Shown piece by piece: positions 9,562 through 63,611 of a DNA stretch of 64,000 nt. The stretch spans positions 3,051 to 67,050 of the forward strand of contig JACRPF010000012.1 of assembly GCA_016214035.1 (NCBI GenBank), written 5' to 3'. Origin of the DNA: Spirochaetota bacterium. Its GTDB lineage: Bacteria > Spirochaetota > Brachyspiria > Brachyspirales > JACRPF01. The position numbers were made by a program, and so were the translations under genes. The notes below the pieces were generated by a model that did not search any database, was not told the DNA's origin, and saw nothing but the letters and a program-made list of their open reading frames with translations. How positions within the stretch are numbered: the first letter of the stretch is position 1; every line of letters starts with the position of its first letter.

Positions 9562-9669
9562 TGCGTGCATTCCGTATCTGCTCCGCACCTGCTCCGTTTC
9601 ACCTTCGCTTCCGCTCCGGTCCCGATACACGCCTTAAATTCAATGTAACACATTTACGTATAGTATAGC

Positions 9670-10173: not shown

Positions 10174-10278
10174 TGCGTTGCACTGCCGATTCGTCCATAC
10201 ATTTTGCAGATTTCTCCATTTCCTTTCAGAGCGATGTATTTATTATTGTTGCATCTTTCAGCATCAAAGGAATACATC

Positions 10279-11589: not shown

Positions 11590-11729
11590 TACATCCGCTC
11601 CGGCGCACATCATCCCGCCTGAGGTGTGTGTTCTCCTGTTGCTCTCCTTGACTTATTCAGCCGTTGATTGTAGCATATTATTATACTAAGATAAGCCCTA
11701 TATTTTTATCGGCATGAAATCTGCAAGGA

Positions 11730-13100: not shown

Positions 13101-13137
13101 GCCCCGGGGACCAAAATTAATGATCGGAGCATAACAC

Positions 13138-13953: not shown

Positions 13954-13999
13954 ACGCACACACTGCCGTTACGCTGGTTCTCATGGAGGCCCGATTGCT

Positions 14000-42401: not shown

Positions 42402-43871
42402 TCATTCTTTCGGCTGTTTTGTCTTAGCCTGTGTGTCCCGCATATTCGCTTCGGCGACCTGCTTTACCTGCGTGTCGAACTCGGGATATTTGCTCCGTAA
42501 AACGTCGAAATCACTTTTCTCAAGTTTGTATACATCGCAGTAACTGACCGCGCGTATGCTGGCGGTACGTTTCTCGCCCTGAATAAGCGCCGTCTCGCCG
42601 AACGGTGAACCCGTGCCGAGATGCGCGACGATGTTGTTATTCACGACAACTTCCACATCGCCGACGCTCAGGAAGTACATGCAGTCGCCGAATTCCCCCT
42701 GCCGGATGATATAGTCGTTGGGCAGGAATACCATGGGCTTTAACAGCTGCGTGATCTCACGTATGAATATGTCATTTGCGTTCCTGAACAGCGACACCTT
42801 TTCCAGTATACCGCGGTTCATGAACAGCGATATTTCCATGGCCAGCGTGTAGGGAAGTTCTTCCATAACACTGCCGGTAGCCGCGCTTTTCTGTGTTTCC
42901 CAGAGATAGTTGTAATAATTGCGTACTTTCTGCTGCAATGGTGCCGGAACGCTCTTGGTCCGCATGTAATCATTCACTTCCTCAAGCTTTTTGAGGAAGT
43001 TGGCTTTTGCCACGTCGAGATTGGCGATAAGTCCCGATACGTTACCGATGATGTAGCCGTACATGCCTACGCCGAATATCTGCGCGACGATGGTGAAGAT
43101 TATCTCTACGTTCTTTTCATGGTTCGGGTAGTAATCGCCGTAACCGATGGTTGCCACCGTGGTGACGGTCCAATAGAGCGCCCGGATGTACTGGTCCATG
43201 TGCGAGCGGTTCTGCTCAACCGCGCCTATCATTATCCAGCCGAGGGCGATGAAGTGCACCATCTGGATGAACCAGAAGGCGAAAACGCTCAGACGCATGA
43301 CGCCGGGATTGATGTTCAGCGCGGTCTGAATCTCACGGAAGGTACCGCTTGCCTTGGTGAGTTTCAGGAGCCGGAAGAACCAGAACGACGCGAGTATGTT
43401 CGCGACAACAGGATTATGCAGGGTTTCGGGCCGGAACAAACCGATGAATATAGGGAAGGGGAAAGCTGCCAGAAAGTCGAATATGAACCATGATCTGAGA
43501 TATGTTTTAATGATCGTAGGCCGGTCCGATATGACATCGAGCTTTTTTTTCACCGATAAATTAAGGTTTACGAAAATATCCAATGAAAATATCACCGTAA
43601 AGAGCACGTAGATAAAGTCGGTTTTATCTTCGCCGTGAACCATGCGGTATGAAAATATGATTGTTGCCGCGAGAATTGAAAGAACGATGAAAACATTCCA
43701 GAATACACGGAATTTACTGTCATACGGTATCACAGGGATAGAGAATTTGCTCATAATATCACTCAATTCGGGAAATAACGTTGGTTCCGGTATATTATCG
43801 GTCAGGGGCTGATGAAATGTTATCGTTTCCGCTTGCATTTTTAAGCGCCGCCTGTACAATCGAATGCACAT
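42402..43871 (-). CDS. cyclic-nucleotide-gated/voltage-type K+ channel
   Basis: 6-TM core with S4-like FWFFRLLKLTK; selectivity filter TVATIGYGDYYP; C-terminal cNMP-binding domain FGETALIQGEKRTASIRA. The start may instead be the ATG at 43838 (MQAETITF). Confidence 0.85.
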   Translation of the reverse strand: MCIRLYRRRLKMQAETITFHQPLTDNIPEPTLFPELSDIMSKFSIPVIPYDSKFRVFWNVFIVLSILAATIIFSYRMVHGEDKTDFIYVLFTVIFSLDIFVNLNLSVKKKLDVISDRPTIIKTYLRSWFIFDFLAAFPFPIFIGLFRPETLHNPVVANILASFWFFRLLKLTKASGTFREIQTALNINPGVMRLSVFAFWFIQMVHFIALGWIMIGAVEQNRSHMDQYIRALYWTVTTVATIGYGDYYPNHEKNVEIIFTIVAQIFGVGMYGYIIGNVSGLIANLDVAKANFLKKLEEVNDYMRTKSVPAPLQQKVRNYYNYLWETQKSAATGSVMEELPYTLAMEISLFMNRGILEKVSLFRNANDIFIREITQLLKPMVFLPNDYIIRQGEFGDCMYFLSVGDVEVVVNNNIVAHLGTGSPFGETALIQGEKRTASIRAVSYCDVYKLEKSDFDVLRSKYPEFDTQVKQVAEANMRDTQAKTKQPKE

Positions 43872-43880: not shown

Positions 43881-45761
43881 ATGGAAACACCCGCACGAAA
43901 AACACTGTTACCTCTGAGCGTCGGCGCATTGGGCGTGGTCTTTGGTGACATCGGAACATCACCGTTATACACCCTTCGCGAGTGTTTTTCACCGCAGCAC
44001 GGCCTTTCATACACATTTCCGGACGTTGCGGGGATATTATCGCTTGTTTTCTGGGCGTTGACGCTTGTCGTCACGGTAAAATACGTCACCTTCATCATGC
44101 GGGCGGACAATCAGGGCGAAGGCGGCATTCTCTCGCTGCTTGCGCTTATTATAGGCAATCGTGACATCAAAAAGACCGTTTTCCCCATCGTCGTGGTGGG
44201 TCTTACCGGTATGTCGCTCCTCCTCGCAGAAGGCATGATAACGCCGGCTATTACCGTGTTGAGCGCCGTTGAAGGGCTTAAAATGGCCGCGAGCGGCATG
44301 CAGCCGTTCATTATACCTATCAGCATCATCATCCTTATTGCGCTGTTCTTCATTCAGCGGCGCGGCACCGGTTTTATCGGCGTGATATTCGGGCCGCTCA
44401 TGATAGTCTGGTTCCTGTCTATCGCCGCACTCGGCATCAATTCCATCATCAAATCGCCTGAAATACTCTGGGCTGTCAATCCCTGGTTCGCGATGCAGTT
44501 CTTTATGACGCATAAAATAGCCGGCGTATTGGTGCTCGGCGCCGTAGTGCTTGCCATCACCGGGGCGGAAGCGCTGTATGCCGACCTCGGCCATTTCGGG
44601 AAATCACCGATACGGCTTGCATGGCTCGCGCTCGTTTTTCCATCACTCGTCCTTAATTATTTCGGGCAGGGAGCCGCGGTGCTCCGTCACGGCGAGGCTG
44701 CCGTTGCCAATCCTTTCTTCTATATCGCGCCGTCGTGGGCGCTTTTTCCGATGATAGCTATCGCAACCATCGCCGCGGTGATTGCTTCTCAGGCGCTCAT
44801 ATCCGGGGCTTTCTCTCTGGTGCAGCAGGCAATGCAGCTCGGGTATGTACCTAAGATGAAAATCATTCACACGTCATACGCCACACACGGTCAGATTTAT
44901 ATGCCGGTTATCAACTATTTTCTCATGTTCGCATGCATCTTCCTTGTCATGTTTTTCCGCTCATCGAGCAATCTCGCCTCCGCATACGGTATTTCCGTCA
45001 TGGGGACGATGACCTGTACAAGTATTCTTTTTTTCATCATGTCGCGGCAGGTATGGCGCTGGCCGCTGGCGCTGAGTATGGTCATCTGTATGGTTTTTTT
45101 CGTCGTGGACGGTACGTTCCTGTCCGCCAATGCGAATAAGGTGATGAGCGGCGGATGGTTCCCTGTTGTCGTTGCCATAGTGTTTTTCACGGTGATGCAG
45201 ACCTGGAAGCGCGGCAGTACGGAAATACACCGCATCATGTCCGCGGGAAGCGTTCCGTTCGACAATTTTCTGAACGGCCTCGCGCACAAGCAGTACGCGG
45301 TCACCCGTATACCCGGCACCGCGGTGTTCATGATCGGCAACCCGAAGAACAAGCTCAGCGTACTCCTGCATCACCTCAAACACAATAAATCCCTGCATGA
45401 GTCGGTTATCCTTCTCTCATTCGCCTTTGATAAGGTGCCGTCGGTGGCGCGCAGTGAACGGTTGTCTATCGTGCGTCACATTGAGGGCTTCTGCGAGATC
45501 CGCGCGCGCTTCGGCTATATGGAATCGCCGCGTATAGATGAGGTCATCGAGCTTTGCAATGAGAACGGCTTCACGCTGAACGTGTATCAGCTGAGTTTCT
45601 TTGTGGGCAGGATCAGTCTCAGCGTCAGTGAAAAGCCGGGCTCCGGCAATTGGCCGCGGCGGCTTTTCCGGTTCATGCACCGGAACGCGGAATCGGCCAT
45701 CGATTATTTCGGCATACCGCCCGGACGCGTTATTGAAGTCGGCACGCAGATAGAACTTTGA
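43881..45761 (+). CDS. kup: KUP/HAK/KT potassium uptake protein (copy 1)
   Basis: 626 aa. GALGVVFGDIGTSPLYTLRECF and RADNQGEGGILSL. Confidence 0.9.
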   Translation: METPARKTLLPLSVGALGVVFGDIGTSPLYTLRECFSPQHGLSYTFPDVAGILSLVFWALTLVVTVKYVTFIMRADNQGEGGILSLLALIIGNRDIKKTVFPIVVVGLTGMSLLLAEGMITPAITVLSAVEGLKMAASGMQPFIIPISIIILIALFFIQRRGTGFIGVIFGPLMIVWFLSIAALGINSIIKSPEILWAVNPWFAMQFFMTHKIAGVLVLGAVVLAITGAEALYADLGHFGKSPIRLAWLALVFPSLVLNYFGQGAAVLRHGEAAVANPFFYIAPSWALFPMIAIATIAAVIASQALISGAFSLVQQAMQLGYVPKMKIIHTSYATHGQIYMPVINYFLMFACIFLVMFFRSSSNLASAYGISVMGTMTCTSILFFIMSRQVWRWPLALSMVICMVFFVVDGTFLSANANKVMSGGWFPVVVAIVFFTVMQTWKRGSTEIHRIMSAGSVPFDNFLNGLAHKQYAVTRIPGTAVFMIGNPKNKLSVLLHHLKHNKSLHESVILLSFAFDKVPSVARSERLSIVRHIEGFCEIRARFGYMESPRIDEVIELCNENGFTLNVYQLSFFVGRISLSVSEKPGSGNWPRRLFRFMHRNAESAIDYFGIPPGRVIEVGTQIEL

Positions 45762-45788: not shown

Positions 45789-47693
45789 ATGTCTTCTGAT
45801 ACAGGCAATGATTCGCTGAAAAAAGCGATAGCCCCGCTGAGTCTCGGCGCGCTTGGTGTCGTATTCGGCGATATCGGCACATCACCGCTCTATACGCTTC
45901 GCGAGTGCTTTAAACCGGCGCACGGGCTTACATTCTCGTTTCCCGATGTTGTCGGTGTCGCCTCGCTGATATTCTGGGCTATCGTAATGGTGGTCGTGGT
46001 GAAATACGTCGTGTTCATCATGCGGGCGGACAACCAGGGCGAGGGCGGCATTCTTTCACTGCTCGCACACATTATCCACAGCAGCAGTCCGGATCAGAAA
46101 AAATCGAAACGATATTCGCTGATCATCATCGTTGGGCTTGTCGGTACTGCGCTTCTGCTTGCCGACGGTATGATTACACCCGCTATCAGCGTACTCGGCG
46201 CTATCGAGGGATTGAAGACCGCTTCGCCCGGTTTCGAGCGTTATATCGTACCGCTTGCCATTGTCATATTGACCGCGTTATTTCTGTTCCAGCGCAGCGG
46301 TACCGCACGCATCGGTATTGTGTTCGGTCCGGTCATGGTTATATGGTTTCTGACAATAGGAACGCTCGGTCTCGTGTCCATCATCCGTTCGCCCGAGGTG
46401 CTCTGGGGTCTTAATCCCTGGTACGCGGTGCGTTACTTTCTTATACACAAGATTGCCGGTGTGCTGATACTGGGCGCGGTGGTACTGGCGATAACCGGCG
46501 CCGAAGCGCTTTTTGCCGATCTCGGTCATTTCGGGAAACGGCCCATCCGCATAGCGTGGTTCGCGCTCGTGTTTCCGGCATTGATACTCAATTATTTCGG
46601 GCAGAGCGCCGCGGTGCTCCGTGACGGTGCGGCTGCTATTGTGAACCCGTTTTATTATATCGCCCCGTCATGGGCGCTGTACCCGGTCATCATCATCGCG
46701 ACCGCAGCTGCGATCATCGCATCGCAGGCGCTCATTTCCGGCGCTTTTTCGCTCGTGCAGCAGGCGATGCAGCTTGGTTATGTGCCGAAGATGAAGATCG
46801 TCCATACCTCGTTCGATATGCACGGCCAGATATACCTGCCGACGCTCAATTATTTTCTCATGGCAGCCTGTATCTTTCTGGTACTTTTCTTCAAATCGTC
46901 TGATAACCTCGCGTCGGCTTACGGGATATCGGTCATGGGGACGATGCTGTCGACGACGATCCTGTTTTTCGTTGTGACGCGTCAGGTGTGGCGCTGGAAG
47001 CTCATCGCGGCGCTGCCGGTATGTCTGCTCTTCTTTGTTGTTGATGCACTGTTCCTTTCGGCGAATATTTCCAAGATCGTGACGGGCGGATGGTTTCCGG
47101 TGCTGGCTGCGGTCATTTTTCTCACGATGATGCAGACCTGGAAGCGGGGCAGCCTTGAGATATACCGTGCCATGTCGGTTGCCAATGTGCCGTTCGATAA
47201 TTTTCTCAACGGACTTGCCGGCAATCAGTATGATGTGACGCGTCTCTCGGGTACGGCGGTGTTCATGATCGGCAACCTGAATAACAAGCTCAGCGTGCTC
47301 CTGCATCATCTGAAACATAACCGTATGCTCCATGAGACGGTTATCCTCATGTCCATCGTATTCGAGCGTGTGCCGTCGGTTTCGCCGGGGCAGCGTCTTG
47401 ATATCAAGCGATATCAGGAGGGGTTTATCGAGGTCCGCGCACGCTACGGTTATATGGAATCACCGCGCATGGAGGATATCATCGGCCTTCTGAACACGAG
47501 CGGTCTGTCGCTGAATATCCATCAGATAAGTTTTTATGTCGGTCATATAAGTCTTGCCATTTCAAAAAGATCCAAGGCCGCGTGGGGCCGGCATATTTTC
47601 CGGCTCATGCACCGTAATGCGGAATCGGCCATCGATTATTTCGGCATACCGCCGGGACGCGTTATTGAAGTAGGCACGCAGATAGAACTGTAG
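45789..47693 (+). CDS. kup: KUP/HAK/KT potassium uptake protein (copy 2)
   Basis: 634 aa. Same motifs as copy 1; tandem paralogue 27 nt downstream. Confidence 0.9.
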   Translation: MSSDTGNDSLKKAIAPLSLGALGVVFGDIGTSPLYTLRECFKPAHGLTFSFPDVVGVASLIFWAIVMVVVVKYVVFIMRADNQGEGGILSLLAHIIHSSSPDQKKSKRYSLIIIVGLVGTALLLADGMITPAISVLGAIEGLKTASPGFERYIVPLAIVILTALFLFQRSGTARIGIVFGPVMVIWFLTIGTLGLVSIIRSPEVLWGLNPWYAVRYFLIHKIAGVLILGAVVLAITGAEALFADLGHFGKRPIRIAWFALVFPALILNYFGQSAAVLRDGAAAIVNPFYYIAPSWALYPVIIIATAAAIIASQALISGAFSLVQQAMQLGYVPKMKIVHTSFDMHGQIYLPTLNYFLMAACIFLVLFFKSSDNLASAYGISVMGTMLSTTILFFVVTRQVWRWKLIAALPVCLLFFVVDALFLSANISKIVTGGWFPVLAAVIFLTMMQTWKRGSLEIYRAMSVANVPFDNFLNGLAGNQYDVTRLSGTAVFMIGNLNNKLSVLLHHLKHNRMLHETVILMSIVFERVPSVSPGQRLDIKRYQEGFIEVRARYGYMESPRMEDIIGLLNTSGLSLNIHQISFYVGHISLAISKRSKAAWGRHIFRLMHRNAESAIDYFGIPPGRVIEVGTQIEL

Positions 47694-47750: not shown

Positions 47751-47779
47751 TTGCAAAAACAACGCCGCTTTGATATAAT
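47751..47779 (+). promoter_or_regulatory. sigma-70-type promoter for the DUF1538/PII-like pair
   Basis: TTGCAA (47751-47756), 17-nt spacer, TGaTATAAT extended -10 (hexamer 47774-47779). Preceded by a T8 run (47731-47738) after a weak hairpin downstream of kup copy 2. Confidence 0.6.
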
Positions 47780-47820
47780 AAATTTGTGCGGTGATTTCAA
47801 CATCATTCGGGGAGCGTACC

Positions 47821-49935
47821 ATGGCAACACAGCAGGCAACCGGCAAAGTAAACATCTCGTTGAAGCAGGCGTTCGGCATGCTCGGGCCGTACGCGTGGGC
47901 GAAGATCCTCGATCAGATTAAATCGGTATCGCTCATCGTTGTATACCTTGTTCTCTTTCAGGTCCTTATTCTCGGTGTCCCTATTGCAAACGCTTCCATT
48001 CTCGCGCTTGGTATCGGCGTGGTGATTATCGGTCTTGCTTTTTTTATGGAAGGTCTTTTTCTCGGACTCATGCCCCTCGGTGAGACCTGCGGAGTCAAGC
48101 TTCCGCAAAAGACGGTATTGCCCGTCATACTTATTTTTGCATTCCTGCTCGGGGTGGGTGCAACGTTCGCTGAGCCCGCCATCGGTGTTCTCAAACAGGC
48201 CGGGTCGTCGGTCACGGCATGGGATGCACCGCTGCTGTTCCTTCTGCTCAATAAGAATTCCGGCTTGCTCGTATGGGCCGTCGGTGCCGGTGTCGGTATT
48301 GCCGTTCTTTTCGGCATGCTCCGTTTCATGTATAACTGGTCGCTCAAGCCGTTCATCTATGTGCTTTATGCAATTGCCGGCGCCTTGTCCATCTGGAGTT
48401 ATTTTGAACCCAATATGGTGTATCTCACCGGTCTTGCCTGGGACTGCGGCGGTGTTACCACCGGTCCGGTGACCGTACCGCTCGTTCTCGCGCTCGGTAT
48501 CGGCATCTGCCGCGCGGCGACGAAAGGCGATGCGGGCAGCAGCGGCGGCGGATTCGGCGTAGTAACGCTTGCGTCGGCCTTTCCCATTATAGCGGTGCTC
48601 GGACTCGGGCTCATATTTCTCGGTTCCGTACCGAAGCCGATGAGTGCGGTAAAACTGTTCAGCACCGAGCAGCGCGATAAAACATTGAAAATGTTCGACA
48701 GCGAGGACGCCATGCGCGGCTATGCGCTCCTGAACGCATCCTATGACGCGCAGCTTGCCGCGTTCAACAATGATACGAAATCGATGCTCGCCTTTGTCAC
48801 CGAGCTCGGTACGAACGCCGCAAAACGTACGGCGGTTGCCGGCGGTGACGCGGCATTTACCGGGTGGCTTTTAAAACGCGGAAGTCAGGAACAGCGGATC
48901 GCCGTGTACGGTTCACCTGAAGCGGTTAAAGCGGCAATTGACCGTTTATCCGCGGCACCGGCGGTCAAGATTGACTTCCGGAACATTTTCGTCGTCAATG
49001 GTCTCGGCGCATTACAGGCAATCGTTCCGCTCAGTCTGTTCCTGCTGTTTGCGCTGTTCGTCATTCTCCGTGAAAAACTGAAACGCGCCGATGAGATATT
49101 TCTCGGCATACTGTTCGCGGTCGTCGGGATGACGCTCTTCAGTATAGGCATAACACTCGGTTTATCGCGTCTGGGCGAGGATGTGGGCAAGAAACTGCCG
49201 TCATCGTTCAAAGCCATTGAAATGGCGGAGCAGACGCAAGTCATCCGGAATTTCAATCCGGCTATCGTCAACAAAGCGATTAGTCCCGACGGCAGTGTCG
49301 ACGAGTTTTTCTATAAAAAAGCGGGCACCGCGTATGCGGCATTTCCCTACCGCTCGAATAATTTCGATCCGCATACGGCGCAGTATGTCTATACCCCCAC
49401 GCGAGGGCCTCTGTTCGGAGGAGTTATGGGTATTGTCATCGTACTCTTCTTCGGATTCATGATGGGGTATGGCGCAACACTTGCCGAACCCGCGCTCAAC
49501 GCGCTTGGAGCCACGGTTGAAGAGCTTACCGTCGGGTCGTTCAAAAAAAGTCTCCTCATGCAGGCGGTCGCTATCGGTGTTGGTGTGGGTATTGCGGTTG
49601 GTGTGGCAAAGATCATATACGGTCTTCCGCTTATCTGGCTGCTGGTGCCGCCGTATCTTATCCTCATGGTATTGACCATTCTGTCGAGTGAGGAATTCGT
49701 GAACATCGGATGGGATAGCGCCGGCGTGACTACCGGTCCGGTAACCGTACCGCTTGTACTTGCAATGGGTCTCGGCATCGGAGGACAGGTGGGCGTAGTT
49801 GAGGGGTTCGGCATTCTTGCGCTCGCGTCGGTATACCCGATCCTCTCGGTGCTCTGCGTCGGCCTCTTTGTAACGATGAAACGTAAATCAGCGCTGAAGG
49901 AAGTGACCACCGCTTCATCTTCGGCTGCGGCATAG
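47821..49935 (+). CDS. fused tandem DUF1538 integral membrane protein (unknown transporter-like)
   Basis: Trimmed to the ATG at 47821 (SD GGGGAG). The two halves share FFMEGLFLGLMPLGE/LFSIGITLGLSRLGE, GATFAEPAIGVL/GATLAEPALNAL and WDCGGVTTGPVTVPLVLALGIG/WDSAGVTTGPVTVPLVLAMGLGIG. Confidence 0.8.
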   Translation: MATQQATGKVNISLKQAFGMLGPYAWAKILDQIKSVSLIVVYLVLFQVLILGVPIANASILALGIGVVIIGLAFFMEGLFLGLMPLGETCGVKLPQKTVLPVILIFAFLLGVGATFAEPAIGVLKQAGSSVTAWDAPLLFLLLNKNSGLLVWAVGAGVGIAVLFGMLRFMYNWSLKPFIYVLYAIAGALSIWSYFEPNMVYLTGLAWDCGGVTTGPVTVPLVLALGIGICRAATKGDAGSSGGGFGVVTLASAFPIIAVLGLGLIFLGSVPKPMSAVKLFSTEQRDKTLKMFDSEDAMRGYALLNASYDAQLAAFNNDTKSMLAFVTELGTNAAKRTAVAGGDAAFTGWLLKRGSQEQRIAVYGSPEAVKAAIDRLSAAPAVKIDFRNIFVVNGLGALQAIVPLSLFLLFALFVILREKLKRADEIFLGILFAVVGMTLFSIGITLGLSRLGEDVGKKLPSSFKAIEMAEQTQVIRNFNPAIVNKAISPDGSVDEFFYKKAGTAYAAFPYRSNNFDPHTAQYVYTPTRGPLFGGVMGIVIVLFFGFMMGYGATLAEPALNALGATVEELTVGSFKKSLLMQAVAIGVGVGIAVGVAKIIYGLPLIWLLVPPYLILMVLTILSSEEFVNIGWDSAGVTTGPVTVPLVLAMGLGIGGQVGVVEGFGILALASVYPILSVLCVGLFVTMKRKSALKEVTTASSSAAA

Positions 49936-49945
49936 GAGGCGTATC

Positions 49946-51061
49946 ATGGAAACAAAAAAATACGCTGAAATCACCTGCAAAGTATATAAGACGATAGCTC
50001 ACCTTGTCACCGATGCGCTGCAGAAGGCAGGCATAACCGAAGTGCATATACAGACCGGCCGGGCGGTGGTGCTCCGTGAAAAGAAAGGAATCCTGGGCAT
50101 CGGTGCCGGCGAGGTGCTCGATGAAGACCCCGCCGAGGTATTCCGTTTCCATGTGCCGTCAGAACAGGCCGATGCGGTCATGAACACCGTCATCGCCGCG
50201 GCGCATCTTGATTCTCCGGGACGCGGAAGTATTTTTGTGAACGATGCGGAAGTCATCCGCAGTGTACATGAACCGGTGCAGCTATCGGTTCCAACCGAGC
50301 GGCCGGTAACGCTGGCATCAGGCCTTATGGGCATCTGCTGCATCGTCCAGCGCGGTCAGGGCAATACCGTCATTCAGTCGGCACTCGATATGGGTTTTTC
50401 GGTGCCGGTGGCGACATTCGGTGAGGGAACCGGTTTACGGGATAAACTCGGTATTCTCCGCATCACGATACCCGCCGAAAAAGAAGTCATCAATATGACG
50501 GTAGCCGAGCAGGACGCACGCGAGGCTATGGATACGCTGGTGGACGCCGGCAAGCTCGATCAGCCGGGAAAAGGTTTCATATATACGTATCCCGTGGGAC
50601 GCGGGCTTATCAATACGAAAATATTCCGCGGTACGCAGAAACATGCCGCAAGTGTCGAGCAGATGATTTCCGCGATCGACGACATCAAAGGCTCGATGGA
50701 ATGGCGCAAACGTTCCGGTGAAGGCCGCAGCGGCGCCGGCGGACGCAAATATCTCAGTAATCTTGTCAACTTCACGCTGGTCTGCAATGAGGGCCGTGCG
50801 CATGAACTCGTTAAGGCCGCCATGTCGGTGGGTGCAGCGGGTGCCACCATCAGCAAGCTCCGGTATTCACGGCTGAACGGTACGGGTGATGATTCAGTTT
50901 CGCCCGCGCGCGAGATGAGCGACCTTATCGTAGGCGCCGCGCAAGTGGATGCCATACGGAAAGCCATTGAAGACGCAGACGGTTTCGGAAAAACATCATC
51001 GGCAATGATTACGCTCAAACCGGTGCCTTCCGCATGCACTTATCTCGGCGGGAGCCGTTAA
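49946..51061 (+). CDS. single-chain protein with three PII-like (GlnB-fold-like) modules
   Basis: 371 aa. Module 1 is ~aa 8-104 (..DSPGRGSIFVNDAEV). Module 2 is ~aa 128-217 (..DQPGKGFIYTYPV). Module 3 is ~aa 275-358 and degenerate. SD AGGAGG overlaps the stop of the DUF1538 gene. Confidence 0.7.
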   Translation: METKKYAEITCKVYKTIAHLVTDALQKAGITEVHIQTGRAVVLREKKGILGIGAGEVLDEDPAEVFRFHVPSEQADAVMNTVIAAAHLDSPGRGSIFVNDAEVIRSVHEPVQLSVPTERPVTLASGLMGICCIVQRGQGNTVIQSALDMGFSVPVATFGEGTGLRDKLGILRITIPAEKEVINMTVAEQDAREAMDTLVDAGKLDQPGKGFIYTYPVGRGLINTKIFRGTQKHAASVEQMISAIDDIKGSMEWRKRSGEGRSGAGGRKYLSNLVNFTLVCNEGRAHELVKAAMSVGAAGATISKLRYSRLNGTGDDSVSPAREMSDLIVGAAQVDAIRKAIEDADGFGKTSSAMITLKPVPSACTYLGGSR

Positions 51062-51142: not shown

Positions 51143-52411
51143 TCAGAATATCATATTCTGTGCCAGCAGAACAAGAAACCCTGCAACATATCCCGCCGCC
51201 GCAAGCGGACCGATCCGCTTCAAGTACCAGAAGAATTCTATTTTCTCCATACCCATTGCGGCGACACCGGCTGCCGAGCCGATGATAAGCATACTGCCGC
51301 CCGTACCCGCCGCATACGCGAGCATCTGCCAGAATGCATGGTCAACCGGATACACCGCATGCGGATACATGCTTATCACCGCCGCGACGATGGGGACGTT
51401 GTCGACTACCGACGATAGGATGCCGATGCAGAACAGGATGATATTCTGTTCCTTGAATGTAGATGAAAGCATATCCGCCGCATGCCGGAGAATGCCTGCC
51501 GCTTCAAGCGATGCCACCGCGGTGAGTATGCCCAGAAAGAATAGAATACTCGTGGCGTCGATGCGCTGCAGGGCGTTCGCCACTGAAAGTTTTGTCCGGT
51601 AGTCGTATTCCTTGCCGCGGTGCATGACCTCGGTGATGATCCAGAGCACGGAAAGGCCCAGGAGTATCCCCATATACGGCGGCAGATGCGTCAGCGATTT
51701 GAATACCGGTATGAATATCAGCGCGCCGATGCCCGTGAAGAAAACGATATTCTTCTCAAGTGACACGATGTCTTTGCGTTTCTCGGGCGGTTGTCCCGGA
51801 ACGCCGCCGCGCATGCCGATTGAAGCGATGATGAGCGGTACGAGCAGGCAGGCAAGGCTCGGCAGAAACAGATGCGTGATGGTGTTCATCGATGTGATGT
51901 TCCCGGCTATCCAGAGCATGGTGGTGGTCACATCGCCGATGGGGGACCATGCGCCGCCCGCATTCGCCGCGATGATGACGATGCCGATGAAGGTGAGGCG
52001 GTCATTGCGGTCATCCACCAGCCGGCGCGTCATCGATGTCATGACGATGGCCGTGGTGAGATTGTCGAGGACGGCGGAGAGGAAGAACGTCACGAAACCG
52101 ATTATCCACAGGAGCAGCCGTTTGTTCTTCGTCCTGATGCGCGAGGTGATGACGTCGAAGCCGTTATGCGCGTCGATGAGCTCTACGATGGTCATCGCCC
52201 CGAGCAGGAAAAAAAGAATTTCGGAGATTCCCCCGAGATGTTCCCTGAGTGAAACGATGATGCTGTGACGTTCCGGCGAAAACACGATGAAGATGACCCA
52301 TGTCACTACGCCGGTCAGAAGCGCGCTTGCAGCCTTGTTGATATGTATGCCGTTCTCAAGAGCGATGAAAAGATAGCCTACGATGAAGATAAGGATGATG
52401 ATGGTTTCCAT
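51143..52411 (-). CDS. nhaD: NhaD/ArsB-superfamily Na+/H+ antiporter (copy 2)
   Basis: 422 aa. METIIILIFIVGYLFIALENGIHINKAAS. Colinear paralogue of 20384..21655. Confidence 0.85.
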   Translation of the reverse strand: METIIILIFIVGYLFIALENGIHINKAASALLTGVVTWVIFIVFSPERHSIIVSLREHLGGISEILFFLLGAMTIVELIDAHNGFDVITSRIRTKNKRLLLWIIGFVTFFLSAVLDNLTTAIVMTSMTRRLVDDRNDRLTFIGIVIIAANAGGAWSPIGDVTTTMLWIAGNITSMNTITHLFLPSLACLLVPLIIASIGMRGGVPGQPPEKRKDIVSLEKNIVFFTGIGALIFIPVFKSLTHLPPYMGILLGLSVLWIITEVMHRGKEYDYRTKLSVANALQRIDATSILFFLGILTAVASLEAAGILRHAADMLSSTFKEQNIILFCIGILSSVVDNVPIVAAVISMYPHAVYPVDHAFWQMLAYAAGTGGSMLIIGSAAGVAAMGMEKIEFFWYLKRIGPLAAAGYVAGFLVLLAQNMIF

Positions 52412-52520: not shown

Positions 52521-52549
52521 TTGACATGTGAATGGGTTTCAGGTATAGT
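52521..52549 (+). promoter_or_regulatory. sigma-70-type promoter for nhaA
   Basis: TTGACA (52521-52526), 17-nt spacer, TATAGT (52544-52549). The ATG at 52556 sits at the expected transcription start. Confidence 0.55.
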
Positions 52550-52555
52550 GGACAT

Positions 52556-53911
52556 ATGAAGATAAAAAGAACGCCTCCGACACTCATCAGCAAGCGCGAT
52601 CGCCTGCCGGTGGATTATTTACTTCATCCGTTTCAATATGTCACTCGTGAGGAGGCATTCGGGGGCGTTTTGCTTATCGCGGCAACAGTTGTCGCACTGG
52701 TTCTGGCAAATTCTCCATGGAAGTTGCTTTATGATTCGATGATCGAAAGTAAATTTTCCATCGGATTTTCATGGTTCGGGCTGAAAATGTCCCTGGGGCA
52801 TTGGATTAACGACGGCCTTATGGCGCTGTTCTTTTTTGTCGTGGGGCTTGAGATCAAACGTGAAGTGTTTGTCGGGGAACTTGCATCCGTCCGGCGTTCG
52901 GCGCTGCCCATAGCGGCGGCGCTGGGGGGGATGCTGGTGCCGGCCGCGGTATACCTCGCCATAAATGCGGGACAGCCCGGTATGCGCGGCTGGGGGGTGC
53001 CGATGGCGACCGATATCGCGTTTTCCATCGGCGCACTCGCGCTCATGGGTAAACGCGTGCCGCTGGGCGTCAAGGTTTTTGTCACCGCACTTGCAATCGT
53101 CGATGATATCGGGGCGGTGCTCGTTATAGCCGTATTTTACACCGGACAGTTGTCGTGGCAGCCGCTCGTGGTGTGCGGACTTTTTCTGGGCATGCTTGTC
53201 GCCGTGAACAGGCTCGGGGTCCGGCATCCGCTCGTGTACGGCATTCTCGGGATATGTCTGTGGGTGGCGATGCTGAAATCCGGCGTGCATGCAACCATCG
53301 CGGGGATACTCACGGCGGTGATCGTTCCCTCACGCTCACGCATCAATGCCCCCGCATTCATCGAAGATAACCGGCTGTATATGAGCGAGTTCAAAGCGGG
53401 CGAAACGGGTGACGGACTCGTGCTTACCAGTAAACGCCAGCAGGCGGCGCTGCGCGCGCTTGAGACCGCATGCGGGAACGTGCAGTCTCCCATGCAGCAG
53501 CTTGAGCATGCCGTATTGCCGTGGGTGCGCTTCATCATAATGCCGCTTTTTGCGTTCGCGAATGCCGGTATAACGGTTACCGGAAACACCGTTTTTGCGA
53601 TGCAGCACCCCGTTGCCATAGGTATCATGGCCGGGCTTGTATTCGGTAAGCCCGCCGGCATCACCCTGTTCTCATGGATAGCGGTGCGTGCCGGAATTGC
53701 CGAGCTGCCGGCCGGTGTGGCGTGGCGTCATCTTATTGCGGCAGCGATGGTGGCGGGCATCGGATTTACAATGTCGCTCTTTATTGCGGAACTTGCGTTC
53801 AAGGATACACTGCTTCTCGACACCGCGAAAATAGGTATTATGCTGGGTTCGTTCATCGCCGCTGTTGCGGGGATGGCGGTTCTCCGGCTCGTTACGCGGC
53901 GACAGACATGA
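52556..53911 (+). CDS. nhaA: Na+/H+ antiporter NhaA
   Basis: WINDGLMALFFFVVGLEIKRE and the ALAIVDDIGAVLVIA (DD pair) motifs. The start is set to the ATG at 52556 because the ATG at 52532 lies inside the promoter spacer. Confidence 0.85.
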   Translation: MKIKRTPPTLISKRDRLPVDYLLHPFQYVTREEAFGGVLLIAATVVALVLANSPWKLLYDSMIESKFSIGFSWFGLKMSLGHWINDGLMALFFFVVGLEIKREVFVGELASVRRSALPIAAALGGMLVPAAVYLAINAGQPGMRGWGVPMATDIAFSIGALALMGKRVPLGVKVFVTALAIVDDIGAVLVIAVFYTGQLSWQPLVVCGLFLGMLVAVNRLGVRHPLVYGILGICLWVAMLKSGVHATIAGILTAVIVPSRSRINAPAFIEDNRLYMSEFKAGETGDGLVLTSKRQQAALRALETACGNVQSPMQQLEHAVLPWVRFIIMPLFAFANAGITVTGNTVFAMQHPVAIGIMAGLVFGKPAGITLFSWIAVRAGIAELPAGVAWRHLIAAAMVAGIGFTMSLFIAELAFKDTLLLDTAKIGIMLGSFIAAVAGMAVLRLVTRRQT

Positions 53912-54081: not shown

Positions 54082-54939
54082 ATGCCGCAAAAAAGAATTA
54101 TTGTCACCTTGGTCGTTATCATTGCCGCGCTCTCAATAGCAGCCACCGGTCTTGCTCTTTTCTCCGGAGGCGGTGCGGAGCCATCAAGCATCACGTCCGT
54201 ACGGGGGCAGCCGGTTGTACTCTACGGCAAAGGCCTCTACCATCACATGAGCGCTGATGTTGCGGTGCAGGGCATTGCGCAGGATTGGGTAACCCTCTGT
54301 CTCGGCGTGCCGTTGCTTCTTCTCTCGCTTCTGTTGTCCCTTCGCGGTTCCCTGCGTTGGCGACTTGTACTTTCCGGAACTCTTGGATACTTTTTTGTCA
54401 CCTATCTGTTTTATCTGGTCATGGCGATGTACAATCCGCTGTTTCTCGTATACACAGCACTATTGGGCACAACGTTTTTCGCGCTTGCCTTTGCACTAAC
54501 GTCATTCGATTTGAACCATCTGGCGAGGAACGCGAATCCCGCGGTATCCGTCAAAGTCGCTGGTATATTCCTGCTTGTAAACAGCCTGCTCATCGGTATG
54601 CTGTGGATGAGCGTCATTGTACCGCCGCTAATTGATGGCAGCATATACCCTCGTTCTCTTGAGCACTACACGACTCTCATCGTCCAGGGATTTGATCTCG
54701 GGCTGCTCCTTCCGCTATCGGTATTCTCCGGCGTTCTGCTCATTCGTCGTAGTCCTCTCGGCTTCCTGCTCGGTCCTGTCTATCTCGTTTTTCTTTCATT
54801 GCTCATGACCGCCCTGGTTTCGAAAATTGCATTCATGGGTTCGCAGGGACAGCCCATTATGCCGGCAATTTTCATAATTCCCGTGCTTGCTTCGGGCGCC
54901 ATTTATTTTTCGGCGCGTCTCATTCGAAATATTTCATAA
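54082..54939 (+). CDS. polytopic membrane protein, unknown function
   Basis: 285 aa and about 7 hydrophobic helices. No recognisable motif. Confidence 0.6.
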   Translation: MPQKRIIVTLVVIIAALSIAATGLALFSGGGAEPSSITSVRGQPVVLYGKGLYHHMSADVAVQGIAQDWVTLCLGVPLLLLSLLLSLRGSLRWRLVLSGTLGYFFVTYLFYLVMAMYNPLFLVYTALLGTTFFALAFALTSFDLNHLARNANPAVSVKVAGIFLLVNSLLIGMLWMSVIVPPLIDGSIYPRSLEHYTTLIVQGFDLGLLLPLSVFSGVLLIRRSPLGFLLGPVYLVFLSLLMTALVSKIAFMGSQGQPIMPAIFIIPVLASGAIYFSARLIRNIS

Positions 54940-54981: not shown

Positions 54982-55713
54982 ATGAATCAGGTTCAAGTCT
55001 TTGCCAACAGCCGTTTTGTTTTCTGGATGGCCTTTGCCTGCGCTGTGACAACACTCGTCACGTTCGCCATTGCAATCATGACCCCGCCTCTTTCGGGTCC
55101 TTTTTGTAAAGCCGGTTGTTTTCAATATCCTTACCTTGACATTGCCTCCCGATTTCCGCGGGATTATTACTGGATGTTCCCTGCCATGATTTCGAACCTT
55201 TTTTTTGTGGCATTGATGGTAGGCCTGCATTATCGTGCAGAGGCCTGCCGCCGGGTTTTTTCGATGTTTGCCCTGATAATCTCATCCATGTCGGCACTCG
55301 TGCTCATTGGGGATTACTTTGTGCAGGTGTCGGTCATACAGCCAAGCGTACTGGCGAAAGAATCTGACGGTGTTTCGCTTCTCACCCAATTTAATCCCCA
55401 CGGTCTGTTTATCGCCTTGGAAGAACTGGGCTACCTCCTGATGAGCCTGGCCATGGCAAGCATTGCATTTGCCCTTTCCAAAGCATCGCTTCTTGAGAGG
55501 GTTGTGCGGTGGATTTTCATCGGTCAAGCGGTGCTTGCCATTGTGCTGCTCGTAACGATTGCGGGATTCATGGGGCATGCACGAGAGTATGTCTTTGAAG
55601 TGGCGATCATTTCTGTAGCCTGGTTGGCGCTCATTGCAGGCGCAGGTATGCTTTCTGTGGTGCTTCGGAGAGATATTCCACGAAAGGCTGAACGAATACA
55701 GCAAAGGCAGTAA
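54982..55713 (+). CDS. polytopic membrane protein, unknown function
   Basis: 243 aa and about 6 hydrophobic helices. Follows the previous gene by 42 nt. Confidence 0.6.
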   Translation: MNQVQVFANSRFVFWMAFACAVTTLVTFAIAIMTPPLSGPFCKAGCFQYPYLDIASRFPRDYYWMFPAMISNLFFVALMVGLHYRAEACRRVFSMFALIISSMSALVLIGDYFVQVSVIQPSVLAKESDGVSLLTQFNPHGLFIALEELGYLLMSLAMASIAFALSKASLLERVVRWIFIGQAVLAIVLLVTIAGFMGHAREYVFEVAIISVAWLALIAGAGMLSVVLRRDIPRKAERIQQRQ

Positions 55714-56525: not shown

Positions 56526-59500
56526 TCAGGGAAATACGATTTCAAAGAACGGTGTGGCATGTATTAGCCGGGCTGTATCGAGCGTTAGCGACAAGATGCC
56601 ATTGGTGAAATCGCCCGATACACGTTCCGCGCGGCTGCCGTCCATATTGAGCGCGTAAATTACGGGGGCAGCAACGTGCTCTGTTTTCATCCGAAGCGAC
56701 AGACGTGCTGTTTCCATAAGTACGGGTAGCGTGCCGATTTCGGCGCAGAGCATGCGGGAGGTACTATCAAATGTCATGCCGGTATTCAGCGCATCGGTGG
56801 CGAAAATGAGCAGCTGCCGTTTGGCCGCTGCGATCGGCTTATCCTGATCAATCGACGCGACGGTAATGGATGCTGGCGCGGTGCAGCCCTCGATACGCAC
56901 ACTGCCGAGATTTATCTGTTCGTTTTTTTTCACTAAGGCGCCGACAAGCCGCGGGGTAATCACCATCAGCTTTCCCGCTTTTCCATCGAGTGTTATCTCG
57001 CCGGTTTCACTCTGATATATCCGAGCTTCCGGGTCGGTGCGGTTGCCGGCGGTAATGATGCCTGCCTGCCGCAATTGCTCGAGTAACGACGGGAATATTT
57101 TTTCATCGGAGGAGGACGCGCTGATGAACATGGCTGACACGCGGAGCGGGGAGAATGATGCCGGTGTTACCGTAAGTTCCGCATGCGCGGTGCCGACGGG
57201 AATGAGCGGCTGAACATCGGGGTACACGATACCGATTTTTGTCAGCATCGACAGTTGCGCATAGTCGTCGCCGATGGCGGCGAGATAGTTTTTGGGAAAC
57301 AGATCGCTGTCGGAAACACTGATGGCCACGGTGTGCGGTGCTGTGGCAACATCACCCCGTCCCCAGGTAAGGCGTTCCACGATGTCGGAAGCCCGCGAAA
57401 TAGGATCGACGGCATTGTCAAAAGTTATGAACGGCAATGACGTCGTGCGCGGTGTTGCCGTGACCGTGCCGTGTGTCGTCAGGCTGTCCCATCCCTGCAG
57501 CGCCGCATATGATCCGAAAAACAACCCACGTTCGTGACGATAGCGGTTGAACGCCGCGTGCGAATGTTCGGTGATCAAGAAAGGACGATCGAGAAACCGT
57601 GCCGCGGCGACTGAACGCACATACGGTGAATACGCTGCATGCAGTGAGCTGTCCTGGTGTGTCGATATATCGATGTTGGTATCGCCGCATATTTTGTTCC
57701 AGTTCGACGATTTCGCCGCGAGTTGTTTTGATGGCACGTTCTGCGGATGCGCGAAGTATGTGTGCTGGGCGATGACGGGCATTTTTGCCCGCACGGGAAT
57801 TTCCATCGTCCGGATTATCATGTCCCACTGACTGATGAGTCCGCCGTAACCGATTTCCCGCAGTGTGGCGACATACCAGTCGGTGGTCTCCTGCATTGCT
57901 TGTATGAGAAATGTCCCCGCGTCGCGCGACCGCGCATCGCCTTTTCTGAGCAATTCTTCGGAAATCTCCGGCAATACATCCCGTGAGGCGGTAGTGTCTC
58001 CCCACGCGGTACGTAACGCCTCGTCCGTTGTGTAGCGGTTCCTGATATACTGATGGAAATGCAGTGAATGAACTCGCATCGCGTTGGTGTCGAACAGAAG
58101 AATGTCCTGCTCATTGTACGGTTCAAGGAGAGCGATAATCGGATCGTCCTTGAGCGCGGTGCCCGTATAGGGATTTTTGTGGTTGAGCAGATACGCGGCA
58201 CCGGCTGCCCAGTGGCGACGATAGTTCGTGTCGTAGAGGAGTTGCACTTTAAAGGTAAGATCGCTACGGATCTTTTTCGGGCGCGGAGTGATGAATCCGT
58301 CTGCATAGCTCATGATGTCGAGGTTCAGGTAAATGCTGTGCTTTTTCAGGCAGGCGAGGAGATAGTCGAACGTGTCAATTGCGGCTGCGTCGAACGCAAT
58401 CGGATTGGCATCGCTGTTTACCATGAACGCGGTGAAGTCGGGCGCGTTCTGGAATTGTTTCATGCCGAGCAAAAAACGGTTCCCGGCCTGAAACCGGACC
58501 ATCGTATATCCCTGCCGCGCAGTTGCAGCGGCAAATTCCTCAAGTTCATCTTTGGAACGTGTATAGAGCGATCCGTCCCAATATTGCAGCCAGGTGTTAT
58601 GGGCGTGAAAACGCACCTGACGGTCGGGATGGCGTTCGAACGCGAGCCTGCCTGCGGTGTTGACGATAACCCGTCCTCGTCCTTCCACCGTTTCCGGAAT
58701 ATTCGCCATACGGGAAAAATCGAGCGCGGTGCCCGGTTGTACCATGAGGTTGTTCATGTTCACCGCTTTCCATGCCGCGCCGGGTTTGACGATAAATATA
58801 CCGCTGTCGCCGGGCGCACGGGTCGGTTTTCCGCAGATGAATTTCCACCCCGCCGAACCGCTCAGTACTTTTATCGCGATGAGATTCGTTCCCGAGCGTA
58901 CCGGCACATCGATGATATGATCGTTGACGGTGAAATCATGCGTTTCGTTTCCCCGGGGAACAGTACCGAATACCTTATCTCCGTTCATATAGACTTCAAG
59001 CCACCAGTCGGCGGCTACACCGATACGCATTTTACCCGAAAACGGTGCCGTGAATTGCTGATAGAAAACGGCACACTTCTTTTCTCGTACAGGTCCGAAG
59101 CGCTGCGCAAGATCGATCGCACCGCCCATAAGACGTATCGTTTGTGCCTGCCGCCCGGTCTGCGAGCCGGGTGATGTATCGGGCATTGATGAGTAATCGT
59201 CAGGCTGCGGTACATCGACAAACGCAAGCCAGTCTTCGGATAGCGAATAGGAGAGCATCTGCTCCGCTTCCGACAGCGATGCGGGGCCGAAGTACAGTGT
59301 CGCCGGTTCCGTGCCGAATTTTGCAAGCATGAAACGCGGTATTCCGAACGTACCGGTGCTGTCGTCGTCTGGGGTGAAAGAAAGTTTCATAGTTTGCCAT
59401 TCCGTCGTAACGGACCGTCCCGTCATCGAGCCGAACATCTTCCACGTCCCCGTCTGGTCGGGCACGAGCATGATGTCCCCCGTCACCGATGCCCTGCAGG

Positions 59501-59795
59501 TAAAAACGATGTCGTAAGTCTTCCCCGCCCGCAGTGTTCCAGTAAACAGTAATCGAAGTTGTACATCCCAGGGTGTTGTTGTACTCCTGAGTTTCTGCAG
59601 ATGTACGGCAAGTACGGATTTTCCGTCGGGCGTTTTTTCAGGGGCGATGTTCATGGTGACATCATTGCCCTTTGCGGGGCTGAGACGGATGTCGTTCAAT
59701 CCGTTCATATCCCATGTTTTCAGGGGTGCCGCGAGAAGCAGGCTAATGCCGGCAATGAATCCATACGCAACTGCAAGCTTTTTTTTCATGTTCAT
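56526..59795 (-). CDS. secreted multidomain putative glycoside hydrolase (CBM4/9-like N-terminus, clan GH-A-like TIM barrel)
   Basis: Trimmed to MNMKKKLAVAYGFIAGISLLLAAP (ATG at 59795). The N-terminal beta-sandwich segment resembles CBM4/9. The central barrel has ..ALLEPYNEQD.. (an NE acid/base-like motif). The function call is tentative. Confidence 0.8.
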   Translation of the reverse strand: MNMKKKLAVAYGFIAGISLLLAAPLKTWDMNGLNDIRLSPAKGNDVTMNIAPEKTPDGKSVLAVHLQKLRSTTTPWDVQLRLLFTGTLRAGKTYDIVFTCRASVTGDIMLVPDQTGTWKMFGSMTGRSVTTEWQTMKLSFTPDDDSTGTFGIPRFMLAKFGTEPATLYFGPASLSEAEQMLSYSLSEDWLAFVDVPQPDDYSSMPDTSPGSQTGRQAQTIRLMGGAIDLAQRFGPVREKKCAVFYQQFTAPFSGKMRIGVAADWWLEVYMNGDKVFGTVPRGNETHDFTVNDHIIDVPVRSGTNLIAIKVLSGSAGWKFICGKPTRAPGDSGIFIVKPGAAWKAVNMNNLMVQPGTALDFSRMANIPETVEGRGRVIVNTAGRLAFERHPDRQVRFHAHNTWLQYWDGSLYTRSKDELEEFAAATARQGYTMVRFQAGNRFLLGMKQFQNAPDFTAFMVNSDANPIAFDAAAIDTFDYLLACLKKHSIYLNLDIMSYADGFITPRPKKIRSDLTFKVQLLYDTNYRRHWAAGAAYLLNHKNPYTGTALKDDPIIALLEPYNEQDILLFDTNAMRVHSLHFHQYIRNRYTTDEALRTAWGDTTASRDVLPEISEELLRKGDARSRDAGTFLIQAMQETTDWYVATLREIGYGGLISQWDMIIRTMEIPVRAKMPVIAQHTYFAHPQNVPSKQLAAKSSNWNKICGDTNIDISTHQDSSLHAAYSPYVRSVAAARFLDRPFLITEHSHAAFNRYRHERGLFFGSYAALQGWDSLTTHGTVTATPRTTSLPFITFDNAVDPISRASDIVERLTWGRGDVATAPHTVAISVSDSDLFPKNYLAAIGDDYAQLSMLTKIGIVYPDVQPLIPVGTAHAELTVTPASFSPLRVSAMFISASSSDEKIFPSLLEQLRQAGIITAGNRTDPEARIYQSETGEITLDGKAGKLMVITPRLVGALVKKNEQINLGSVRIEGCTAPASITVASIDQDKPIAAAKRQLLIFATDALNTGMTFDSTSRMLCAEIGTLPVLMETARLSLRMKTEHVAAPVIYALNMDGSRAERVSGDFTNGILSLTLDTARLIHATPFFEIVFP

Positions 59796-60086
59796 TATCC
59801 CTGCTAGTATTTGGTAACTATATCCGCCCGTTTTATATTGATATACGTTATGATCGCACCAAAGACCGTTTCGGCAATCGCATTCTTTCCCGCGTTTCGG
59901 AATGCTCGATGACGTCGTTGTATGCGGATGCACATTACTCCTAGATATTCTAGGATATCGAATAATCTTATTGTACTATAAAATGGAAAAAGGTGCTATA
60001 AGAATTTGCCTACTTTCTATAAATATTTCTTGATGCAACATAACCGCCGCGTCAAGCCACGTGTGCGGCCGGTTGGCCGGGCAGGT

Positions 60087-63530: not shown

Positions 63531-63582
63531 GGCATCCTCGCATATAAAATGACCACCAGGTACGTCATCGGCGGTTTCATTG

Positions 63583-63611
63583 AGTGTACCGTAATAGAAC
63601 CGCTTCGTCAA
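63583..63611 (-). promoter_or_regulatory. possible sigma-70-type promoter for the P-type ATPase
   Basis: On the minus strand: TTGACG (63611-63606), 17-nt spacer, TACACT (63588-63583). Confidence 0.35.

Follow-up and report, generated by a model that had tools for sequence, protein, structure and literature searches.

Here, we report a two-gene locus in a 64,000-nucleotide (nt) stretch of the genome of a Spirochaetota bacterium (assembly GCA_016214035.1, contig JACRPF010000012.1, positions 3,051 to 67,050 of the forward strand), called the window below, in whose coordinates all of its features are given. The first gene (47821..49935, +) encodes a fused double-DUF1538 membrane protein of 704 amino acids (aa), a candidate single-chain transporter of the UmpAB type (Pfam, NCBIfam, half-versus-half BLASTP, and AlphaFold2). 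The second (49946..51061, +) encodes a 371-aa protein with three tandem PII-like domains in one chain (family profile, hhalign, and linkage). We favor, at a probability of roughly 55%, the reading that the locus is a PII-gated monovalent-cation/proton transporter module made up of a UmpAB-type single chain and a triple-PII regulator.

The open reading frame (ORF) of the first gene spans 47791..49935 (+). The ATG at 47821, which yields the 704-aa product, was favored because a Shine-Dalgarno sequence was read upstream of it (GGGGAG, 47809..47814, +, 6 nt before the ATG) and because the alignment with homologs begins at residue 1. A GTG at 47791 could also serve as the start and would give a longer product, without support. 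The product is 100% identical to the database entry "DUF1538 family protein, MAG Spirochaetes bacterium." PF07556 (DUF1538) matched both halves in two stretches (Pfam; E value, 1.4e-110; 368 bits against a gathering cutoff of 22.6). A BLASTP comparison of the N half with the C half gave an E value of 2e-17 (38% identity over 168 aa) and a second collinear segment at 2e-5. The internal duplication, proposed along with the double-DUF1538 fusion in an initial annotation made from the letters alone, is real and well beyond chance. The three motif pairs named there were all found where they had been placed in the DNA, in the same order in both halves: FFMEGLFLGLMPLGE (aa 74 to 88) with LFSIGITLGLSRLGE (aa 439 to 453), GATFAEPAIGVL (aa 113 to 124) with GATLAEPALNAL (aa 551 to 562), and WDCGGVTTGPVTVPLVLALGIG (DNA 48439 to 48504) with WDSAGVTTGPVTVPLVLAMGLGIG (DNA 49711 to 49782).

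The N half (aa 1 to 269; 47821..48627, +) is a UmpA-like DUF1538 repeat of seven transmembrane helices (TM), predicted to run N-in/C-out, and the C half (aa 396 to 704; 49006..49932, +) is a UmpB-like 7-TM repeat, predicted to run N-out/C-in (both by NCBIfam, AlphaFold2, and counts of lysine plus arginine [K+R]). Between them lies a linker (aa 270 to 395; 48628..49005, +), which is soluble as first annotated but about 125 aa long instead of the 100 aa proposed; it is all helical in the AlphaFold2 model (helices at aa ~276 to 378), would be extracytoplasmic according to the topology, and matched no Pfam family. Loop TM2′-TM3′ of the C half holds a beta-rich insertion of ~85 aa (aa 449 to 533; 49165..49419, +; model strands at aa ~473 to 524), also predicted to be extracytoplasmic. 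Upstream of the gene, in the 127-nt region that separates it from the second of two Kup genes (Kup2), sits a promoter-like TTGCAA-17-TG-n-TATAAT with an extended −10 element (47751..47779, +). Of the promoter with which the gene had been credited, this consensus match stands (10/12 positions, TG present), and it is a consensus match only; the count of promoter-like sites in this intergenic region was not above shuffled expectation. No Rfam family, K+-related riboswitches included, reached threshold within the window.

The Shine-Dalgarno sequence of the second gene (AGGAGG, 49934..49939, +; 6 nt before the ATG at 49946) overlaps the TAG stop codon of the DUF1538 gene, and the gap from stop to start is 10 nt. 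Translational coupling had been suggested for the pair; in the sequence, it amounts to this tight spacing, with no overlap of codons. The product had been taken for a simple PII-like protein. As a single sequence, it barely passes the Pfam P-II model (PF00543; 25.9 bits against 25), and it departs from the canonical PII architecture, a ~112-aa homotrimer subunit, in being one 371-aa chain of three diverged domains. In a 44-sequence profile, the first ~100 residues align with a full-length solved PII (6yc6; E value, 1.6e-4) and residues ~185 to 224 align with the C-terminal half of GlnK/GlnB. Between the thirds of the chain, hhalign paired the first domain (D1) with the second (D2) at a probability of 97.8% (E value, 6.7e-13) and D2 with the third (D3) at 95.5% (E value, 1.4e-8); the match of D1 to D3 was weak. 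Together, the profile and hhalign results indicate three tandem PII-like domains, namely, D1 (aa 5 to 105; 49958..50260, +), D2 (aa 126 to 222; 50321..50611, +), and a degenerate D3 (aa 269 to 364; 50750..51037, +), the last recognized by its alignment to D2.

D2 carries the conserved motif string GICCIVQRGQGN...FGxGTGLRDKLGLLRITIPAEKEV...LDQPGKGFIY, which includes a T-loop-like GxGTGLRDKLG segment, and is the best-conserved domain. Its columns average 0.70 identity, against 0.49 in D1 and 0.59 in D3, and 30 of them reach at least 90%, a pattern consistent with one privileged contact domain. The triple-PII family comprised 270 clusters (E value, ≤1e-30) among 1.84 billion cluster representatives. 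Nearly all full-length members are 365 to 390 aa long, and this uniform length of ~370 aa marks a distinct family of uniform architecture. Most members are without a Pfam domain, and some are labeled "nitrogen regulatory protein PII."

The two genes were found together at every fused locus of the scan (one genome per species), which gave 80 loci with a fused DUF1538 protein of ~700 aa (52 to 67% identity). The loci span more than 12 phyla and come from Gemmatimonadota, Latescibacterota, Planctomycetota, Desulfobacterota, Spirochaetota, Cloacimonadota, Fibrobacterota, Zixibacteria, Bdellovibrionota, Betaproteobacteria, Syntrophomonadaceae, and others. A full-length triple-PII homolog lies directly downstream on the same strand in 80/80, and a reverse search from divergent triple-PII proteins returned to the fused DUF1538 gene. 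At one further locus (L165 2879-5004, on a 4.9-Mb contig), gene calling split the fused DUF1538 gene, which lies just upstream of a triple-PII gene, into pieces of 566 and 135 aa, probably because of a frameshift in the assembly or because it is a pseudogene.

The same partnership was found in the split form. Separate, adjacent DUF1538 genes beside PII-like genes had been expected to be common, and they are: among 80 split metagenome loci, a second DUF1538 gene was present in all 57 with enough sequence, and a single P-II gene was present in 51 of the 51 with that second gene. Single or double PII genes stand beside DUF1538 in 6 further annotated or called examples. The order DUF1538-DUF1538-P-II occurs in Desulfosarcina BuS5 and one other contig, and Chelativorans and Methylocystis have split DUF1538 genes with a P-II of 112 to 122 aa. 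In these last two, the three genes lie on conjugative/mobilizable plasmids beside insertion sequence (IS) elements (Chelativorans, L167 3744-4747; Methylocystis, L168 3285-4669), and the plasmid location and adjoining IS elements indicate that the module is horizontally mobile; the first Chelativorans DUF1538 gene, annotated with only 90 aa, may be truncated.

In a third architecture, seen in two Clostridial fusions (Paraclostridium bifermentans plasmid, L166 3272-5423; Vescimonas fastidiosa, L169 4025-6219), a double DUF1538 of ~500 aa lacks the long linker and precedes a 222- to 224-aa "P-II family" protein. This shorter PII aligns to D1 plus D2 of the triple-PII profile (hhalign probability, 97.3%; E value, 2e-11). 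The split operons of Desulfobacterales and Alphaproteobacteria and the Clostridial fusions have the same three parts in the same order as the window locus and differ from it in the degree of fusion. The split transporter goes with a single PII and the short fusion, which lacks the big linker, with a double one; the window locus belongs to the long-fusion class, which has a triple PII. In the examples seen, the more fused the transporter is, the more PII domains its partner has, and since the fused, split, and short-fused forms are all PII linked, the linkage is family wide. In one Desulfobacterales locus (L025), the fused module is followed by a UmpA-like gene (359 bits), a UmpB-like gene (318 bits), a single P-II gene, and an RCK K+ channel gene; all six genes stand in tandem at 6980-14276, and because both versions are present, one genome can keep the fused and split forms together.

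The initial annotation held DUF1538 to be without an established function. A member has been characterized: UmpAB of Halomonas zhaodongensis was published as a Na+(Li+,K+)/H+ antiporter (Meng et al., 2017; PMC5484666). Its two adjacent DUF1538 genes rescue the Na+/Li+/alkali-sensitive Escherichia coli KNabc only when coexpressed, UmpA and UmpB coimmunoprecipitate as a heterodimer, and in everted vesicles, the pair exchanges Na+(Li+,K+) for H+ in a pH-dependent manner. The loop that is longer in UmpA is III-IV; in UmpB, it is II-III, and the C terminus of UmpB is hydrophilic (PMC5484666). The study makes no mention of PII, fusion, or antiparallel topology. Later genome papers annotate "UmpAB homologs" as salinity adaptation genes, and in a machine-learning study (2026; PMC13255231), PF07556 is among the features predictive of growth pH, beside cation transporters, which is a correlative result.

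The NCBIfam UmpA and UmpB models gave 198 and 153 bits, respectively, with the whole 704-aa protein. The N half scored 112 bits with UmpA against 64 with UmpB, and the C half scored 104.5 bits with UmpB against 101.3 with UmpA, nearly equal. The halves thereby fall within a characterized transporter family at the level of the family, though not at that of the equivalog. A simple joining of UmpA to UmpB was partly supported only; the N half is clearly UmpA-like, and the C half scores about equally on both models. Like UmpAB, the window protein belongs to Pfam DUF1538 and has two homologous 7-TM units, here as one chain instead of a heterodimer. Its N half has the long loop III-IV and positive N terminus of the UmpA type, and its C half has the long loop II-III and hydrophilic, positive C terminus of the UmpB type; in the alignment with the split A and B subunits, these features recur with the beta-rich L2′-3′ insertion and a C-terminal KRK tail. 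Conservation extends to the AEPA Glu and the W/Y-D Asp, with those of the split subunits aligning to E118/E556 and D208/D632. Unlike UmpAB, it is a single chain with a ~125-aa helical linker, ~32% identity, and an obligatory triple-PII partner.

As DUF1538 already has a characterized member, the locus is not a new kind of system. The earlier proposal of a wholly uncharacterized transporter family, without experimental precedent, has in its favor that the Pfam label is still "Protein of unknown function" and that most database entries are called hypothetical or DUF1538 proteins; we find it hardly credible, and at the level of the family already refuted, given that UmpAB was characterized in 2017, that the UmpA and UmpB models match both halves, and that homologs are already annotated.

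An AlphaFold2 model of the 704-aa protein (89-sequence alignment; predicted local distance difference test [pLDDT], 83.1; predicted template modeling score, 0.82) shows seven membrane helices in each half, two of them broken. The first break lies within GATxAEPA (A117-E118-P119 in the N half and A555-E556 in the C half), and the second lies within GGVTTGPV (T213-V217 and T637-V641); the broken helices of each half also carry Thr pairs. A Foldseek search of the model against the PDB found nothing similar (best E value, 0.03; TM score, 0.12), sequence and profile searches of the PDB with DUF1538 gave nothing significant, and OspA matches on the linker (E value, >0.1) were dismissed as noise. Across the 89 sequences, the invariant residues are E77, E118 (GATFAEPA break), R168, K176, D208 (WDCGGVTTGP break), and R231 in the N half and E556 (GATLAEPA break), E567, K576, K597, and D632 (WDSAGVTTGP break) in the C half. 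Loop L4-5 holds an invariant RFxYxWSLKP. The charges placed in the membrane are E77, E118, and D208 in the N half and E445, E556, E567, K597, and D632 in the C half. With no solved DUF1538 structure at hand, the confident model and the invariant carboxylates at its four helix breaks provide direct targets for mutagenesis.

The K+R means over the same 89 sequences follow a register in the C half that is opposite to that of the N half. For the N half, they are 5.6 at the N terminus, 1.85 in L2-3, 2.0 in L4-5, and 1.5 in L6-7, with 0.06, 1.8, and 0.08 in the remaining segments; in the C half, they are 3.4 in L1′-2′, 2.0 in L3′-4′, and 3.6 at the C terminus, with ~0 to 1 in the remaining segments. 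Loop by loop, L1-2 has 0.06 against 3.39 in L1′-2′, L4-5 has 2.0 against 0, and L6-7 has 1.5 against 0. K+R-rich loops alternate every two helices, and both termini are positive. Read with the positive-inside rule, this opposite register places the N half N-in/C-out and the C half N-out/C-in, with inside and outside totals of 10.9 and ~2 for the N half and of 9.0 and 1.0 for the C half in the inverted model; a parallel arrangement would leave ~9 K/R outside. The predicted architecture is a 7+7 inverted repeat with the linker and beta insertion outside. Positive-inside statistics thus support the inverted-repeat topology that had been anticipated. The GVTTGP segments had been compared to reentrant loops; the regular two-TM alternation of K/R-rich loops would fit full crossings better, and the segments appear to behave as breaks in crossing helices.

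Antiparallel homologous membrane pairs and fusions are known from the small multidrug resistance (SMR)/EmrE pairs and the DUF606 family in the dual-topology literature. DUF1538 resembles them in its odd-TM homologous units of opposite K/R bias, which are encoded either by neighboring genes or within one fused inverted repeat. It differs in family and fold, in its larger units (7 TM), in the predicted nature of its topology, and in the weak bias of split subunit B, which is only weakly opposite to the strongly N-in split subunit A, mainly through its positive C terminus.

The large conserved extracytoplasmic domains (linker and beta insertion) of the fused protein are absent from the split forms, and two-component regulators were found near ~10 loci. 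Both could suggest a nontransporter membrane sensor, whose external helical and beta domains would pass a signal to a PII-like output. This is very improbable, as the split and short-fused forms without those domains keep their PII partner, the invariant residues concentrate in the membrane core, and one family member transports ions (PMC5484666).

The mechanism that we favor is that of a self-contained two-gene module. The first gene would encode a secondary transporter in which UmpA-like and then UmpB-like units are joined as a 14-TM inverted repeat with antiparallel halves, its helical linker and beta-rich insertion facing outside. The broken helices at GATxAEPA and WDxxGVTTGP would bring together the carboxylates E118/E556 and D208/D632, along with E77, E445, and the Thr pairs, and the four breaks may converge mid-membrane as a cation/proton site for alternating access. 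By homology with UmpAB, the most likely activity would be monovalent-cation (Na+/K+/Li+)/H+ exchange serving salt, K+, and pH homeostasis. The second gene would encode the cytoplasmic regulator, its three domains folding as a single-chain pseudotrimer that may sense a small-molecule signal and bind the cytoplasmic face of the transporter 1:1, gating it as GlnK plugs AmtB and SbtB plugs SbtA. D2 would be the privileged contact, with D1 and D3 completing the pseudotrimeric body.

The comparison with SbtA/SbtB and AmtB/GlnK was already drawn in the initial annotation and seems reasonable as an analogy. In all of these systems, a PII-type gene adjoins the transporter gene (here immediately downstream, in an order conserved across phyla), and a cytoplasmic sensor presumably gates the transporter. 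The window transporter is unrelated to Amt or SbtA, with only DUF1538 detected. GlnK and SbtB, as PII homotrimers, each act on a matching homotrimeric target; here, a pseudo-twofold inverted repeat would meet one chain of three diverged domains, and canonical effector-binding residues are not conserved in the triple PII.

Neighboring genes bear on what the module may carry. The two nearest genes per side (240 proteins) fell into 178 and 143 different Pfam families, which indicates that the module is autonomous. The top specific recurring neighbors were TrkA_N/RCK (9), cNMP_binding (5), Na_H_Exchanger (4), and Ion_trans (3), along with generic two-component regulators. By clustering, ~22/80 loci lie within 7 kb of a gene for an RCK K+ channel, a TrkA-like protein, a Kef-type CPA2 exchanger, a cyclic nucleoside monophosphate (cNMP)-gated channel, or Kup. 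Genes for ammonium transport, nitrogen assimilation, carboxysomes, RuBisCO, and carbonic anhydrase do not recur among the 240 neighbors.

The same PII-gated architecture could carry another substrate, such as ammonium, bicarbonate or some other anion, or a small organic solute that is coupled to Na+ or H+, in which case the cation/H+ antiport of UmpAB would be a clade-specific or partial reaction. The ~32% identity to UmpAB-like proteins, with scores far below the equivalog cutoffs, indeed means that the substrate may differ from that of UmpAB; the well-studied PII-transporter pairs all handle nitrogen or carbon species; ~58/80 loci are without an ion transport neighbor; and the PDB offered no structural relative to constrain the choice. 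We nonetheless consider this reading unlikely, since nitrogen and inorganic-carbon genes do not recur, K+/monovalent-cation machinery is the sole recurrent specific theme, the family-wide invariant carboxylates are kept, and the family's single experimental result is cation/H+ antiport (PMC5484666).

The module also recurs beside K+ channels with RCK or cNMP domains, and the PII plug mode is established for the channel-like AmtB. These points would suit a regulated cation channel, uniporter, or efflux valve, in which the triple PII plugs a pore between the antiparallel halves from the cytoplasm, alongside K+ channels or exchangers. Inverted repeats with broken helices are typical of carriers of the NhaA, LeuT, and GltPh types. 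The inverted repeat, broken helices, and paired carboxylates of DUF1538 would, by analogy, argue for a carrier, and UmpAB gave pH-dependent exchange in vesicles (PMC5484666), which leaves a channel or valve improbable.

Several results weigh against the PII-gated cation/proton transporter that we prefer. The NCBIfam equivalog models set cutoffs of 490 bits (NF041627, UmpA) and 500 bits (NF041628, UmpB), and the halves reach 112 and 104.5 bits; the split pair of L025 (359 and 318 bits) also stays under them. The fused halves are 31 to 33% identical to UmpAB-like split subunits and about equidistant from A and B, and together with the subequivalog scores, this indicates that the fused proteins form a deep, separate DUF1538 subfamily. 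The evidence for UmpAB activity is a single study (heterologous complementation and everted vesicles), in which UmpAB worked without any PII (PMC5484666). Enrichment of K+/cation gene neighbors is suggestive, covering about a quarter of loci with no background rate. Of the ATP/ADP/2-oxoglutarate contacts that mark canonical PII proteins (R38/Q39 at the T-loop base, K58, and the B-loop GDGK with K90), the equivalents of K58 and K90 are not conserved in D1; in the profile-to-PII alignment, GDGK faces "GrGs" in the family consensus, and K58 faces a hydrophobic residue. D2 has PGKGF, so a PII ligand cannot be assumed. The single-sequence AlphaFold model of the 371-aa protein was unusable (pLDDT, 39). 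Family position 445 (TM2′) is Glu in 84/89 sequences, Asp in 2, and Thr solely in the window protein. The T445 codon is ACA (49153-49155), and a change to GAA/GAG takes two base changes, which speaks against a single-base error; T445 may change how the protein of this organism couples or selects ions.

Few signal transducers are as widespread as PII proteins, and the best-understood membrane targets of PII carry ammonium (AmtB) and bicarbonate (SbtA). If the strict PII-DUF1538 pairing holds as proposed, PII targets would come to include a third type, a cation/proton transporter, and metabolic sensing would be tied to the homeostasis of salt, K+, and pH. The family also offers a natural series, from separate antiparallel subunits with a single PII, through a short fusion with a double PII, to a long fusion with a triple PII, which could serve to study the coevolution of inverted-repeat transporters and their regulators. 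"DUF1538 / P-II family nitrogen regulator" annotations could also be renamed; the pairs resemble nitrogen genes and probably are not.

We propose more tentatively that DUF1538 and its PII-like partners constitute an undescribed, phylum-spanning class of PII-gated ion transporters with a fold absent among solved structures, in which PII domains were fused in step with the transporter (single, double, triple) to give a 1:1 pseudotrimer acting via D2; Na+/K+/pH homeostasis would thereby be linked to an energy or second-messenger signal, and PII control would reach beyond nitrogen and carbon. The strict DUF1538-PII pairing appears to be undescribed. The same appears true of the long-fused proteins as a subfamily, of the triple PII that accompanies them, of PII coupling throughout the family, and of the antiparallel arrangement of the halves. 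The literature searched gave no mention of a DUF1538-PII association or of tandem or single-chain PII, and neither a "PII valve plug" preprint nor a Methanococcus RB-TnSeq preprint mentions the DUF1538 family. The Borrelia "PII-like membrane protein" BB0017, considered as a lead, belongs to the unrelated YitT/DUF2179 family.

Within the window, the module lies in an ion homeostasis island of ~21 kb (all assignments by Pfam). Two full-length Kup paralogs (K_trans plus K_trans_C) stand in tandem 27 nt apart, Kup paralog 1 at 43881-45761 (+) and Kup2 at 45789-47693 (+), directly upstream of the module. A CitMHS/NhaD-like transporter (51143-52411, −), NhaA (52532-53911, +), and a P-type cation ATPase (60801-63611, −) lie downstream. 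The K+/Na+/H+ transporter setting described in the initial annotation is real here and is not conserved as such elsewhere; among the 80 fused loci, co-occurrence with Kup was 1/80 and with NhaA 0/80, with NhaD-like genes giving at most two weak matches, and strict linkage to these genes was rejected. Three ORFs between NhaA and the P-type ATPase are without a Pfam match at an E value of ≤1e-4 (54082-54939, +, 285 aa; 54982-55713, +, 243 aa; 56526-59933, −, 1,135 aa). Divergent from the Kup genes lies a cNMP-gated channel-type protein (Ion_trans plus Ion_trans_2 plus cNMP_binding; 42402-43871, −), and a cNMP-gated channel of the same kind stands just downstream of the module in two other loci (L035 and L038).

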